Assembly: GCF_044324875.1 (NCBI RefSeq)
Contig: NZ_CP172185.1
Source: Escherichia coli
GTDB taxonomy: Bacteria > Pseudomonadota > Gammaproteobacteria > Enterobacterales > Enterobacteriaceae
Strand: one strand, 5' to 3'
DNA: 64,000 bases
Shown here: piece by piece, positions 13,866-41,324 of the stretch
How the letters are laid out: the number at the start of each line of letters is the position of its first letter
How positions within the stretch are numbered: position 1 is the stretch's first letter
Notes under the pieces: generated by a model
Database searches by the model: none
The model's input: the letters and a program-made list of their open reading frames with translations, nothing else
What the model was told of the DNA's origin: nothing
Program-made: the position numbers and the translations under genes

Positions 13866-13899
13866 TGCCGGATGCGGCGCGCCAGCATCGCATCCGGTA
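13866..13899. terminator. REP-like palindromic hairpin downstream of ettA
   Basis: gccggatgcggcgcgccagcatcgcatccggt: imperfect inverted repeat typical of REP units. Confidence 0.5.
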
Positions 13900-14011
13900 T
13901 TAGTTAAATGATTAGTCCCCGGAAAAAAGCAAAATTTTCTTTAAGCGTATTAGCTCAGATGCGGACTGACATCTCAAATCAAGCGGGAACTCATGGTTCC
14001 CGCTTAACGTT

Positions 14012-14899
14012 TTATTCACCGCGCAGGATCTGGCGGAAATGGGAAACCAGCGGACGTTGGTTGGCTTTATGCCAGGCTGCCCATAATTGCGTTGAATAAT
14101 TCATCCACGGCAATTCACGTAATACCACCCCTTCCGGCGCATTATGACGCAGACTATTTTGAATTAAGGCCAGACCTAATCCCGCAGCGACCAAACCTAA
14201 TGCCGTGAGGGGTTCACCCGCTTCCAGGCGAATATCAGGATTAAACCCGGCGTTAACACAGGCGGCGACAAAATGATCGCGAGAATGCGCATCGTCGTTA
14301 TGAATCACCGCAATCCACTGCTCATCGCCAAGTTGTGACGCGACAAGGTTTTCCTCCTGCGCCAGAGGATGATTTTGCGGTAAGGCCAACAACATTCGAT
14401 CATCCAGAACCTGAATATATTCCAGATCCTGCTCGCTGTCGGTGGGCGGCGTATCGACCAGAGAAAAATCGAGACTGCGCTGACGCAGGCCTTCAATCTG
14501 GGTAGCCGGTGGTTGGCTGTAAAGAGCGATATGCACATTCGGACGCGATACACGTAACGTACGTAGCGCCGTAGAAAGCACACCGGAATGCATGGCGTTT
14601 TCGATATAGCCAATACACAAGCCACCATCTTCCCCCCGTCCCAGGCGTTTGCCTAACGACTCCAGGCGGTTGGCGTGTGTCAGCAACGAACGTGTTTCGG
14701 CAAGGAATGTCTGTCCATCAGCGGTCAGGCGAATGCGCTGCTGATTACGCTCAAACAGCGTCAGTCCCAGCCGTTCTTCCAGTTGTGCAATCTGGCGGCT
14801 CAGCGGCGATTGCGAGATATGTAATCGCTCGGCTGCGCGTCCCACGTGCTCTTCTTCTGCGACCACCACGAAGTACTTCAGTTGGCGTAAATCAATCAT
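14012..14899 (-). CDS. LysR-family transcriptional regulator (accessory)
   Basis: ORF 14012..15028; likely start at Met 14899 giving MIDLRQLKYFVVVAEEEHVGRAAERLHISQSPLSRQIAQLEERLG... (LysR HTH); divergent from the aldo-keto reductase gene. Confidence 0.85.
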   Translation of the reverse strand: MIDLRQLKYFVVVAEEEHVGRAAERLHISQSPLSRQIAQLEERLGLTLFERNQQRIRLTADGQTFLAETRSLLTHANRLESLGKRLGRGEDGGLCIGYIENAMHSGVLSTALRTLRVSRPNVHIALYSQPPATQIEGLRQRSLDFSLVDTPPTDSEQDLEYIQVLDDRMLLALPQNHPLAQEENLVASQLGDEQWIAVIHNDDAHSRDHFVAACVNAGFNPDIRLEAGEPLTALGLVAAGLGLALIQNSLRHNAPEGVVLRELPWMNYSTQLWAAWHKANQRPLVSHFRQILRGE

Positions 14900-15031
14900 G
14901 TTAGACCTCAAAGGACTTAAGTCAGACGAATTATGTCCTATCAAGTCACAACCTCGCAAGGTATTGTGATCCACGTCACAGGGCAATAGCAAAAAACGCC
15001 CGAACCCAAACCGAATAATTGAGGACATCTT

Positions 15032-16042
15032 ATGAGCATCAAAAATTTACTTCCCGGCAAAATTGGCTTAGGCGGCGCACCACTCGGCAACATGTTCCGT
15101 GCCATTCCGGAAGAAGAGGCCCACGCCACCGTGAGCGAAGCCTGGAACCTGGGTGTGCGTTACTTTGATACCGCGCCGCTGTACGGCTCTGGCCTTTCTG
15201 AAATCCGCATGGGTGAAGCGCTGTCTCAGTATCCACGCGATGAATACGTTCTGAGTAGCAAAGTCGGTCGCATCGTGCTGGACGAAATGGAAGATCCGGC
15301 AAAACGGGATTTCGGTGAAAAAGGTGGCCTGTTCGAACACGGCCTGAAAAACAAAATTCTGAATGACTACTCTGCTGACGCCACGCTGCGCTCGATTGAA
15401 GACAGCCTGAAACGCCTGAAAACAGATCGTCTGGATATTGTCTGGATCCACGACCCGGCGCAGGACTTCTACGGTGACAGCTGGCTGGAGCAGTTCAACA
15501 TAGCCCGTACCGGTGCGTTTCGTGCGCTGACGCGTTTGCGTGACGAAGGTGTGATTAAAGCCTGGGGACTGGGTGTCAACCGCGTCGAACCTTGCGAACT
15601 GACGCTGGCGCTGGACGAACCGAAGCCGGATGCGTTCCTGCTGGCGGGGCGTTATTCCCTGCTGGATCACGAACGTGCGCTGCAACGCCTGATGCCAGAA
15701 GCACTGGAACAGAACGTGGATATTGTTGTGGGCGGTCCGTACAGCTCTGGCGTACTGGCAGGCGGCGAGCACTTTGAATATCAGAAAGCTTCTGCGGCCA
15801 TCCAGCAGAAAGTGGCGCAAATTAACGCCATTGCCACACGTTTCAATGTGAACGTTAAAGCGGCTGCGCTGCAGTTCGCGCTGGCAAACCCGGCCGTTGC
15901 AGCGGTTATTCCTGGCTCCAGCCGTCCTGGCCGTATGGCAGAAGATCTGGCTGCACTGAATGCGCCTGTTCCGGCTGAATTCTGGGCAGAAATGCGCCGT
16001 CAAAATCTGGTTGCGGAAAACGCTCCGCTGCCGACCCGTTAA
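15032..16042 (+). CDS. Aldo-keto reductase family oxidoreductase (accessory)
   Basis: 336 aa; AKR-like pattern (FDTAPLYG, IVWIHDP, LAGRYSLL); divergently paired with LysR regulator. Confidence 0.85.
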   Translation: MSIKNLLPGKIGLGGAPLGNMFRAIPEEEAHATVSEAWNLGVRYFDTAPLYGSGLSEIRMGEALSQYPRDEYVLSSKVGRIVLDEMEDPAKRDFGEKGGLFEHGLKNKILNDYSADATLRSIEDSLKRLKTDRLDIVWIHDPAQDFYGDSWLEQFNIARTGAFRALTRLRDEGVIKAWGLGVNRVEPCELTLALDEPKPDAFLLAGRYSLLDHERALQRLMPEALEQNVDIVVGGPYSSGVLAGGEHFEYQKASAAIQQKVAQINAIATRFNVNVKAAALQFALANPAVAAVIPGSSRPGRMAEDLAALNAPVPAEFWAEMRRQNLVAENAPLPTR

Positions 16043-16061
16043 TCAACCTGGTGAGAAAACG

Positions 16062-16858
16062 ATGAAACTGGATCTGACAGGTAAAGTCGCGGTGGTCAGC
16101 GGCTCAACCTCCGGCATTGGGCAGGGTATCGCCGCCGGACTGGCAAAAGCAGGCGCAACGGTGGTTGTCGTCGGCCGTAAACAGCGCGGCGTTGATGATG
16201 CCATGGCTGCGATTGCGGCACAAACTCCCACGGCGTCACTGCGCGGCGTGGTGGCCGATCTCAGCACCGAAGACGGCGTGGCTGCGCTGATCGCTGCAGT
16301 CCCAACGGCTGATGTGCTGGTCAATAATCTGGGCATTTTTAACGATAAAGATTTCTTTAGCGTTCCGGATGATGAGTGGATGCACTTCTATAACGTCAAC
16401 GTCCTCTCCGGCGTTCGTCTGGCGCGTCACTATGCGCCAGGCATGACGGAACAGGGCTGGGGCGGATTATCTTTGTCTCGTCTGAATCCGGCGTGGCAAT
16501 TCCTGGCGACATGATCAACTACGGCGTCACCAAAGCCGCGAATCTGGCGGTTTCTCATGGTCTGGCGAAACGACTGGCAGGGACCGGTGTGACCGTCAAC
16601 GCCATTCTGCCAGGGCCAACCTTTACCGATGGCCTGAAAGAGATGCTGGCGGATGCCGCTGCACAATCGGGACGCAGTGCGCGTGAACAGGCCGATGAGT
16701 TTGTTAAAACCTCGCGTCCGAGCTCCATCATCCAGCGTGCGGCGGATGTGGAAGAAGTGGCGAATCTGGCGGTTTATCTCGCGTCACCGCTTTCCTCGGC
16801 AACCACAGGGGCAGCCCTGCGCGTCGATGGCGGCGTCGTCGACACCCTGACAATGTAA
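16062..16858 (+). pseudogene. Short-chain dehydrogenase/reductase disrupted by a -1 frameshift
   Basis: N-terminal part MKLDLTGKVAVVSGSTSGIGQGIAAGLAKAGATVVVVGR (Rossmann TGxxxGIG) ends at 16514; C-terminal part (AIPGDMINYGVTKAA..., YxxxK active site) runs in a different frame to 16858; frames join at the G-run ctggggcgg near 16457-16463. Confidence 0.75.
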
Positions 16859-16883
16859 CCCTATAAATTAAGAGAAAATTATC

Positions 16884-17300
16884 ATGGCTAAAACAACTGT
16901 ATCGATCGAAATTCCGGCTTCTGCCGACGCCGTATGGCAATTGATGGGCGGCTTTGATGCGCTGCCAGACTGGCTGCCGTTCATCCCGAAAAGCGTAGTG
17001 ACAGAAGGCGGTCGCGTTCGTTCGCTGACAACCTCTGACGGCGGCACTGTGGTTGAACGTCTGGAAGCGTTTGATAACCGTCAACGCAGTTATACCTATT
17101 CCATTATTCAGGCACCGTTCCCGGTGGTGGATTACCTCTCCACCATTACCGTTCATGAAACCGCCGACAGCCAGGTTTCCCGTGTGGAATGGTTCGGTGA
17201 ATTCACCCCGGTGAATGTGACGAACGAAGAGGCCGAAGCGCTGTTTACCGGCATCTATCGGGATGGTCTCAAGGCGCTGAAGGACAACTTTGTTGCCTGA
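16884..17300 (+). CDS. SRPBCC (Bet v1-like / polyketide cyclase-like) family protein
   Basis: 138 aa; MAKTTVSIEIPASADAVWQLMGGFDALPDWLPFI... Confidence 0.7.
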   Translation: MAKTTVSIEIPASADAVWQLMGGFDALPDWLPFIPKSVVTEGGRVRSLTTSDGGTVVERLEAFDNRQRSYTYSIIQAPFPVVDYLSTITVHETADSQVSRVEWFGEFTPVNVTNEEAEALFTGIYRDGLKALKDNFVA

Positions 17301-17457
17301 TGCGATCGACAGGCGTCGGAACGTCCGGCGTCTGATTATTAACAAAAACAGAATAGTCTATTGCCATTTGTATCATTTATGTTATCAGGCAGTAGGCGTA
17401 TTCTCTCCCCATCGCGTTAATAAACGCCAAACAATTAAGACACTCTGGAATATAAAC

Positions 17458-17670
17458 ATGAAAACGATCATCGCAATTTTTACGGCTTCTCTTTTCTCTG
17501 TCGCGGCGTTTAACGCATCGGCGCAAAGCGTGACAGCAACCGGTACAACACTGGATTCCGCTGAAGCGGTTATTGCGCAGAAAGCGAAAGAGATGAACGC
17601 CTCTGAATACAAAATTACCAGCGCTCGCATGGGCAATACCGTCACCATGAGTGCCGAACTGTACAAATAA
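17458..17670 (+). CDS. DUF1471 (YdgH/BhsA/McbA-like) small secreted protein
   Basis: 70 aa with signal peptide MKTIIAIFTASLFSVAAFNASA and ...ASEYKITSARMGNTVTMSAELYK. Confidence 0.7.
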   Translation: MKTIIAIFTASLFSVAAFNASAQSVTATGTTLDSAEAVIAQKAKEMNASEYKITSARMGNTVTMSAELYK

Positions 17671-17694
17671 CCGCACGAGAGACCCATTACGTAA

Positions 17695-18001
17695 TTTGCT
17701 AAATATGCGCTGAATGCGTTGCCATTAATAAACCGTATTGTAATGCCACCGATGACGCGTTCCCGTGCGGGTGACGTTGCGACTGACATAATGGCGGCCT
17801 ATTACGCGCAGCGCGCCAGTGCTGGACTTTTCATTAGCGAAGGTACGCAAATCAGCAGAAGCGCTGCGCATAATTTTCCACGGCACGCTGATTTACTCCG
17901 GTAAAGACACCAAAGCGCGCGCCGAACAGGCGCTGGCTAACGGCTAGTCGGATCTGATTGGATTTGGTCGTCCGTATAGTGCCAAAAGCGGAAGTTGGTA
18001 G
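17695..18001 (+). pseudogene. Remnant of Old-Yellow-Enzyme family NADH:flavin oxidoreductase (NemA-like), internally deleted with stop codons
   Basis: Frame reads ...ALPLINRIVMPPMTRSRAGDVATDIMAAYYAQRASAGLFISEGTQIS (OYE N-terminus) then ...YSGKDTKARAEQALANG*SDLIGFGRPY... (OYE C-terminal motifs); about 250 central codons missing. Confidence 0.65.
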
Positions 18002-18097
18002 TTTCAGCCTATGTTGATAAACGGGGAGCCGGTCAGCACGTAAAGAGATTTTTTTGTACTGCTATGGCCCGATCAAAAATCGATTGAGCCGAATGTG

Positions 18098-18469
18098 CTA
18101 GCTATCTCCGAAGATAATTTTTTCGAGCTCCTGCAAGTCCTGCTGTGATTGCTCGTTAAGGTTAGCCTCTAACTTGTCGTACCATGTAAGCAGTTTCTTG
18201 CCAAGTGGTGTCAAAACCGAGCCTCCACCTTTACTGCCGCCTGTTGATGTAATTACCACCGGCTTACCTATGCCTTTATTGAGTGTATCAATCAGGAGCC
18301 ACGCCCTTTTATAGGGGATTCCCAGATCTTTTGCGGCAGCTGAAAGGGAATGAAACCCATCTATAGCTCGTAAAAGATCGATTTTCCCCGGTCCCAGCGA
18401 GATATTGTCATTAATGTAGATTCGGGGTCTGACCAAAATAAAATCAAACATAAGCGTTTTTTTATTCAT
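18098..18469 (-). CDS. ModE N-terminal-domain-like winged-helix regulator (no Mop domains)
   Basis: ORF 18098..18487; GGAG about 9 nt before Met at 18469; LGPGKIDLLRAIDGFHSLSAAAKDLGIPYKRAWLLIDTLNKGIGKPVVITSTGGSKGGGSVLTPLGKKLL resembles ModE N-domain (GGKGGGGAVLT). Confidence 0.7.
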   Translation of the reverse strand: MNKKTLMFDFILVRPRIYINDNISLGPGKIDLLRAIDGFHSLSAAAKDLGIPYKRAWLLIDTLNKGIGKPVVITSTGGSKGGGSVLTPLGKKLLTWYDKLEANLNEQSQQDLQELEKIIFGDS

Positions 18470-18494
18470 TCTGAGAACTCCGTGCAAAGTATTT

Positions 18495-19301
18495 TTATCG
18501 GGTGTGTTTGAAAGTTTTGATGGCAGAAATAAGAAGGATCACACCAAGTAAAGTCATAAGGGCTTTAAGTGGGAACAAGCCGACCATAAGTCCACCAATT
18601 GCTGCACCAATTACTGAACCAATAACCATCCATACAAACAGTGTCCTTTCTTGCTTCAGAATCAGGAAAGCATCTGCATTTATATAACGGGAAAAGCCAA
18701 CAATCATTGTTGGCAGGCTAATCATCAGTGAAAGACTTCCGGCCAGTTTAATATCTTCCCCGAAAAGGATAACGATTGTGGGGATAAGAAGCTCTCCGCC
18801 AGCCACTCCGAGCAATGCTGCGACTATCCCGATAAAGCCCCCTGATACCACCCCCACAATAATCATGGCAAGGCCAGGTTGAAATAACCCGCCTGAAATA
18901 CTGTGCAACGGCATCTAGGCTTCAGAGAGCATGACAAAAGACAGTAAAACAAGCAGGATCAGAATGATTCTGTCCAGCCAGATTCTGGACATCTTTATGG
19001 CACGACCTGCGGCCCACCATGCTCCAATAAGACTTCCTGCCAGCAAATTTATGACAATATCAAGATGCGCCACCAACTGATCAAAAGATATAGATTTTGT
19101 TCGGAAAATTAAAGCAATAGCCACCACGGCGAGACTCATTGCTTTGTTAAAAATGACGGCTTCCAGAGAAGGGATTTTGAAACTACCGATCAGTACGGGA
19201 AGGCGAAATTCAGCCCCTCCGAGGCCAATCAACCCACCTAAAGCCCCTATTACCGCGCCTGAGAAAAAACCTTTACCATTCCTGTTTGAAACTGACGACA
19301 T
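18495..19301 (-). pseudogene. TauE/SafE-family (DUF81) membrane permease interrupted by in-frame amber codon
   Basis: Two adjacent same-frame ORFs (19301..18915 and 18914..18495) separated only by TAG at 18917-18915; each half has Gly-rich transmembrane helices; combined about 268 aa. Confidence 0.7.
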
Positions 19302-19714
19302 GCGTTCCTCTCTAATTCGTTATGTCTTTTTTGACATAACGACAAGCATAGCATTGCAGAACAGGCGTCTGGTAGTTGCTTGTAAAGACGAGGATTGATC
19401 CAGGTTAAAATTTATTCTATTAACCTGCTCTCCGTTGTTTAACACACCACGATTTATGTGATGCTTTCATGAGAAATTAAAACAACTAAGAACTTCCGCT
19501 TCTCGCTCGAAGCGGACTGTCAGATTTGATTGCATTCTGGCTACGCAACTGGTCGGTTGGAGTATGAAGTTGCTCACGAATAGCCTTAGCATCCGCAATT
19601 TCGTAGCGGGTCACCCGTGCAGGTTCTTTCTAATCTCAACAGCCTCTTCCAGAGAGTTTTTCAACTCATCAAAAAACTCAATTTATACCTCGCCTTTGAG
19701 CCGTTTCATCACGG

Positions 19715-32515: not shown

Positions 32516-33807
<1,292 letters not shown>

Positions 33808-40623: not shown

Positions 40624-40880
<257 letters not shown>

Positions 40881-41001: not shown

Positions 41002-41088
41002 GCGAAGGTGGCGGAATTGGTAGACGCGCTAGCTTCAGGTGTTAGTGTCCTTACGGACGTGGGGGTTCAAGTCCCCCCCCTCGCACCA
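41002..41088 (+). tRNA. leuQ: tRNA-Leu (anticodon CAG), copy 1
   Basis: GCGAAGGTGGCGGAATTGGTAGACGCGCTAGCTTCAGGTGTTAGTGTCCTTACGGACGTGGGGGTTCAAGTCCCCCCCCTCGCACCA; cloverleaf with long variable arm. Confidence 0.93.
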
Positions 41089-41116
41089 AAAACCACGTTG
41101 ATATTGCTCGCACTGG

Positions 41117-41203
41117 GCGAAGGTGGCGGAATTGGTAGACGCGCTAGCTTCAGGTGTTAGTGTTCTTACGGACGTGGGGGTTCAAGTCCCCCCCCTCGCA
41201 CCA
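41117..41203 (+). tRNA. leuP: tRNA-Leu (CAG), copy 2, with C-to-T change in variable arm
   Basis: Identical to copy 1 except GTGTTCTTACGG for GTGTCCTTACGG. Confidence 0.9.
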
Positions 41204-41237
41204 AACGAGGCGATATCAAAAAAAGTAAGACGACTGT

Positions 41238-41324
41238 GCGAAGGTGGCGGAATTGGTAGACGCGCTAGCTTCAGGTGTTAGTGTCCTTACGGACGTGGGG
41301 GTTCAAGTTCCCCCCCTCGCACCA
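41238..41324 (+). tRNA. leuV: tRNA-Leu (CAG), copy 3, with C-to-T change in T-stem
   Basis: Identical to copy 1 except TTCAAGTTCCCC for TTCAAGTCCCCC (G-U wobble in T-stem). Confidence 0.9.

Follow-up and report, generated by a model that had tools for sequence, protein, structure and literature searches.

An Old Yellow Enzyme pseudogene remnant at the end of a six-gene cluster between ettA and nadR in Escherichia coli

The segment at positions 17689-17985 (+ strand) of a 64,000-nucleotide stretch of an Escherichia coli chromosome, hereafter the window, is almost certainly a non-functional pseudogene of a class-I Old Yellow Enzyme (OYE). It was the last gene of a six-gene cluster and was inactivated by five lesions. 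This remnant of an OYE-type alkene reductase consists of two pieces of a PF00724 gene, and alignment to intact orthologues identifies them as codons 1-58 and 288-329 of a 365-codon gene, directly abutting each other. It keeps 98 of the 365 codons, in two frames; codons 59-287 and 330-365 are absent, leaving the window copy without 73% of the codons. The window comes from the thrL region of the chromosome and runs in reverse through arcA, ettA, nadR, radA, the deo genes and prfC; its best identity to complete RefSeq E. coli genomes is 98.6-98.8% over 24 kb. The remnant lies in the ettA-nadR interval, which spans 5.7 kb in the window (13882-19578) versus REP elements only in K-12. The feature is an ordinary pseudogene, already annotated and shared across lineages.

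An earlier note on this DNA had described a degraded, NemA-like OYE gene at 17695-18001, in which an N-terminal flavin-binding region runs almost directly into a C-terminal fragment. Translation reproduces the peptides behind that description, and the joined peptide matches Pfam PF00724 (Oxidored_FMN) with E=4.9e-10 and 39.6 bits versus a 27-bit cutoff, a similarity well outside what chance would give. One plus-strand frame of 17680-18030 reads ...T, a stop and then FAKYALNALPLINRIVMPPMTRSRAGDVATDIMAAYYAQRASAGLFISEGTQIS; the next plus-strand frame reads AEALRIIFHGTLIYSGKDTKARAEQALANG, a stop and then SDLIGFGRPYSAKS. The location given in the note holds, with the ends refined to 17689-17985. 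The alignment to full-length OYE orthologues that the note had proposed bears out the large internal deletion it had suspected, with 686 nt absent at window position 17856/17857 and endpoints at orthologue nt 175-860. The in-frame stops are likewise present as two stop codons, at 17692-17694 and 17945-17947. The damage goes beyond the internal deletion and the stops: the gene is also truncated at its 3' end, has lost its start codon and lacks a further 6 nt. The pieces of the remnant and its lesions are as follows.

17689-17856 (+): 5' fragment, intact codons 1-58 minus 2 codons, from the codon alignment
17857-17985 (+): 3' fragment, running from the final base of codon 287 through codons 288-329 to 2 nt of codon 330, in a frame different from that of the 5' fragment
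17689-17694 (+): lost start plus stop, ATG to ACG (17689-17691) and codon 2 TTA to TAA (17692-17694)
17764-17767 (+), near 17765: 6-nt in-frame deletion, where the orthologue reads CGC GCC GGT GCG GGT
17856-17857 (+): junction of the 686-nt internal deletion (L086 8175-8860, L086 being a locus with the intact gene)
17945-17947 (+): nonsense TAG, which is TGG (Trp317) in the orthologue
17985-17988: 3' breakpoint, where homology to the intact gene stops 109 nt short of its stop codon

The remnant has the complete 5' end of the gene despite the start-codon mutation, and ATG TTA stands at the gene start in the intact copies of L086, Kluyvera (L004) and Pseudocitrobacter (L008). The internal deletion is out of frame and takes out codons 59-286 together with two bases of codon 287. 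The same gap of 686 nt appears when the remnant is compared with the genes of Kluyvera and Pseudocitrobacter. Comparison of the junction sequences with an intact copy finds no microhomology at the 686-nt junction; the deletion is blunt. The catalytic motif HGANGY (His183/Asn186/Tyr188, starting at residue 183 in orthologue numbering) falls inside the deleted codons 59-287. This single blunt deletion shifts the frame and removes most of the TIM barrel, including these catalytic residues. Because of the few codons that survive and the loss of the catalytic motif, no functional enzyme can be made.

The lesions differ in age. The ACG, the TAA and the 686-nt junction occur in six of six aligned E. 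coli copies, which come from unrelated assemblies. Since these three changes are common to all examined E. coli copies, they are old events that predate the spread of the locus in E. coli. The 6-nt deletion and the TAG are later, lineage-specific decay. Both are polymorphic: strain 1504D004 (L084) retains the 6 nt, and isolate 30821_1#274 (L085) retains TGG. An imperfect GCCGGT/GCGGGT tandem surrounds the 6-nt deletion and leaves its exact placing ambiguous. The last 109 nt of the intact gene are missing from the remnant and would have been lost at the cluster edge.

The PF00724 match covers profile positions 13-66 of 342 only, and descent from this family is also backed by the 94.6-97.5% DNA identity of the remnant to an intact PF00724 gene. 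A complete (beta/alpha)8 barrel of about 340 residues in one frame is lacking, and the substrate-binding His/His(Asn) pair and the Tyr proton donor (HxxN/HGY motif) have been deleted. There is no translatable ORF, given the ATG to ACG change, the TAA at codon 2, the frameshift at 17856/17857 and the TAG at 17945-17947. The window sequence retains just the first beta-hairpin/FMN-contact region and one C-terminal stretch, and with only these two regions the remnant would be unable to fold as a barrel.

The ancestral gene was a class-I OYE of the SYE1-like type. SYE1 is an FMN-dependent ene-reductase TIM barrel. Among solved structures, the intact orthologue matches SYE1 from Shewanella oneidensis (PDB 2GOU/4AWS) best, at E=2e-138 and 465 bits over the full length, although SYE1 comes from a different genus and has no synteny with the window gene. 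The structures of NemA and PETN reductase are more distant from the intact orthologue (E about 1e-100); these enzymes share with the gene PF00724, the N-terminal motifs PPMTR and YYxQRASAGL, and the C-terminal motif FGR. E. coli NemA is a paralogue rather than an orthologue, with 49% protein identity to the intact orthologue. The nemA gene lies elsewhere in the genome, between nemR and gloA, and is therefore not syntenic; its nucleotide identity to the remnant is ~70% over 123 nt. In place of the His/His pair of NemA, the intact orthologue carries His/Asn, and its score of 397.5 bits falls just below the 403 cutoff of NCBIfam NF007899 (NemA). Given the identity of 49%, the other locus and the sub-cutoff score, the description "NemA-like" is right at the family level (PF00724) only and fails for nemA orthology.

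The intact orthologue, P0134, is a 365-aa alkene reductase with the source names E. marmotae and E. ruysiae (e.g., QLN20982.1), and it was found by a protein search with the Kluyvera gene as the query. A protein search with the joined 96-aa remnant returned fragments of at most 165 aa, mostly E. coli 'hypothetical proteins', and no full-length relative. In a one-genome-per-species contig scan with the joined remnant, the matches listed are OYE genes of many phyla, with identities of 68-82% across 50 residues. Among the matches listed, only those of Kluyvera genomosp. 1 (L004) and Pseudocitrobacter (L008, L011) are syntenic, with DUF1471 upstream, and these have an intact DUF1471-OYE pair.

P0134 is a true orthologue, its cluster DNA being 97.1-97.6% identical to the window. 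The order LysR, aldo/keto reductase, SDR, SRPBCC, DUF1471 and OYE is identical in the window and at the P0134 loci, and intact P0134 stands in this same six-gene order in L086-L089 and L093-L097. The upstream cluster and the 5' piece (window 13981-17856) align to L086 4291-8174 as a single alignment at 97.5%, and window 17857-17985 aligns to L086 8861-8989 at 94.6%. Where the cluster is intact, 18 nt separate the DUF1471 stop from the reductase start downstream of it. The P0134 locus differs in occupying another chromosomal site, after yhiN and, at most of the loci, upstream of an ArsP permease and yhiM, and the core flanks of its host genomes are just 93-95% identical to E. coli. Apart from the remnant, the cluster comprises the following features in the window.

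13982-17688: rest of the cluster, from alignment to intact clusters
14012-14899 (-): LysR regulator
15032-16042: aldo/keto reductase
16062-16858: SDR, frameshifted in the window
16884-17300: SRPBCC protein
17458-17670: DUF1471/YdgH-BhsA protein

Several observations concern the cluster as a whole. The 4.0-kb cluster (window 13982-17985, 54% GC) is found at two chromosomal sites across Escherichia and is less diverged than the core genome. No mobility genes are visible with it in the window or in L086-L089 and L093-L097. These observations suggest that Escherichia lineages have exchanged the cluster laterally. A perfect hairpin, AAGCGGGAAC-N5-GTTCCCGCTT, occupies window 13982-14006 just downstream of the LysR gene, and homology to the cryptic-clade cluster starts exactly there; the hairpin is possibly a terminator located right at the boundary of the cluster. 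The SDR gene has lost 1 nt in a G run (G5 to G4) at ~16459, which splits it into ORFs at 15960-16514 and 16493-16858. ST2747, PCN033 and the cryptic-clade loci all have an intact SDR gene, and the loss is a frameshift specific to this lineage or else a homopolymer sequencing error. Since the pN/pS of the SDR gene is still about 0-0.1, the lesion, if real, is recent.

At 90% identity or more, the remnant as query finds matches in 482 complete E. coli genomes, and the junction is spanned by a single alignment piece in every E. coli match listed. With the intact 1,098-nt gene as the query, 482 of the 5,426 complete E. coli genomes match (about 9%); in every carrier the match covers at most 27% of the gene, at one place per genome. 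No intact copy is present among the 5,426 complete genomes. These data bear on whether the damage is an assembly or sequencing artefact, in which case the gene would be intact in the organism, with the deletion and the stops as errors. The earlier note had allowed that a full-length OYE ORF might reappear once assembly errors were corrected. None was recovered, and the identical junction recurs in 482 independently assembled complete E. coli genomes. The same junction in so many genomes, together with the lack of an intact copy, means that the deletion is not an assembly error. In favour of the artefact reading, the 1-nt loss from the G run of the SDR gene, which belongs to this island, might be a homopolymer read error; however, a 686-nt loss is not typical of read errors, the junction, the ACG start and the TAA agree among the six aligned copies, and the 482 genomes match the intact gene solely as the same two short pieces. 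The artefact reading retains next to no probability and can be considered already effectively refuted.

Some public full-length proteins carry the label 'Escherichia coli', and these were considered as intact E. coli copies and rejected. All those examined lie at the yhiN locus, and their pitA-yhiN flanks are merely 93.3-95.0% identical to those of genuine E. coli, which indicates that the host genomes are cryptic-clade Escherichia.

The substitution pattern of the remnant is the signature of neutral decay. Relative to the orthologue, the remnant has 12 nonsynonymous and 5 synonymous changes (pN/pS 0.76), whereas the five neighbouring genes, pooled and compared with their orthologues, have 7 nonsynonymous and 58 synonymous changes (pN/pS 0.04). 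This contrast between remnant and neighbours is significant by Fisher's test (p=2e-6). In the comparison of the window with ST2747, the remnant shows 3.7% divergence, flanking intergenic DNA 3.2-3.6%, and most intact neighbours 0.3-1.6%. The locus thus shows two marks of a unitary, decaying pseudogene, namely disabling lesions relative to a syntenic intact orthologue and relaxed selection relative to its neighbours.

An alternative to simple decay is that the remnant has been exapted, either to encode a small protein or to serve the DUF1471 transcript as functional 3' UTR or sRNA. Two candidate small proteins fall within it.

17719-17904 (+): 61-aa TTG ORF, from the ORF list
17819-17947 (+): 42-aa GTG ORF, RefSeq WP_000883916.1

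The existence of both ORFs, one of them a RefSeq hypothetical protein, and the persistence of the remnant in 482 genomes would fit exaptation, but the ORF ends vary by lineage, the TAG/TGG polymorphism altering the length of the 42-aa ORF, and about 440 genomes are without everything from 17927 on. The pN/pS of the remnant is near neutral, and its divergence from ST2747 resembles that of the flanking intergenic DNA. No Rfam match was obtained in 17300-18200 at E of 1 or less, and a promoter/terminator scan of 17250-18550 gave one promoter-like and one terminator-like site, not above the level of shuffled sequence. The neutral pattern, the lack of an Rfam or motif signal, and ORFs that vary or are lost by lineage make a retained function unlikely, and we consider exaptation extremely improbable. 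Under a further conjecture, which we regard as highly unlikely, the DUF1471 (YdgH/BhsA-family) transcript would retain the remnant as a functional small ORF or 3' UTR and, separately, the 3' breakpoint would mark the place at which a 4-kb redox cluster was pasted from cryptic-clade Escherichia into ettA-nadR by illegitimate recombination, with no mobility gene. If such pasting were true, E. coli would never have had the complete 3' end at that site. Nothing contradicts the reading of 17689-17985 as a pseudogene; a minor caveat is that the small 42-aa ORF is formally present. The pseudogene would do nothing, beyond possible carriage as untranslated 3' sequence of the DUF1471 transcript.

Existing annotation already recognizes part of this. 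In several genomes, RefSeq/PGAP lists the locus as an incomplete pseudo 'alkene reductase' or 'oxidoreductase' (ACU5TU_RS20805, WJ109_RS21185). These annotated pseudogenes have 96-99% identical DNA, lie at the same ettA-nadR site, and are described as 'incomplete; missing C-terminus'. They differ from the present description in that the pseudo label is placed on the 5' fragment only, the 3' fragment is sometimes a separate hypothetical protein or oxidoreductase, and the deletion is undescribed. In some RefSeq records the remnant also contains an annotated 42-aa 'hypothetical protein', WP_000883916.1. No papers came up in a literature search on the ettA(yjjK)-nadR island. The practical use for annotation is to merge the two fragments into one pseudogene and to drop the spurious 42-aa 'hypothetical protein'. 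Carriers can be told apart by the internal deletion, the 6-nt indel, the TAG and a 1.58-kb secondary deletion, which gives the locus a possible use as a lineage marker. The remnant cleanly illustrates how a gene decays in an accessory E. coli cluster and matters little otherwise; it points to no new mechanism and opens no long-standing question.

At the 3' breakpoint of the remnant, the 4.0-kb conserved cluster ends on its right side and a cassette of lower GC begins. This cassette (17989-19490, 43.8% GC) abuts the remnant and encodes a ModE-N-like winged-helix protein and a TauE permease, both beside the remnant on the opposite strand.

18098-18487 (-): ModE-N-like winged-helix protein
18495-19301 (-): TauE/SafE permease

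A TGG to TAG nonsense change at 18915-18917 falls in the middle of the TauE/SafE gene, which is intact in E300010, ST2747 and PCN033; the gene is a second lineage-specific pseudogene in the island. In isolate 30821_1#274 (L085 5300-5946), a GNAT acetyltransferase gene stands in place of the winged-helix and TauE cassette. Its junctions are at 17988 on the left and ~19491 on the right, versus ~19508 in genomes with the secondary deletion, and are essentially the same. Because the GNAT gene and the winged-helix and TauE genes lie between essentially the same junctions, they are alternative cassettes that occupy one site.

The secondary deletion removes 1,581 nt (the equivalent of 17927-19507; L083, L084) in about 440 of the 482 carriers, taking with it the 3' part of the remnant and the winged-helix and TauE genes. 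Its junction has a 4-nt microhomology (GAAG). The arrangement in the window is the rarer one (41 genomes) and is apparently older than the secondary-deletion form.

Beside nadR, window 19579-19714 holds a truncated nadS (NadS family) remnant, which RefSeq lists as incomplete in K-12 and all other strains checked. Elsewhere in the window, REP/BIME-type repeat arrays (Rfam naRNA4) occur at 32552-33032 (five copies) and 40669-40862 (two copies), and three tandem tRNA genes lie at 41002-41321. These arrays and tRNA genes are ordinary E. coli features and explain the many scattered places at which the window gives BLAST matches.
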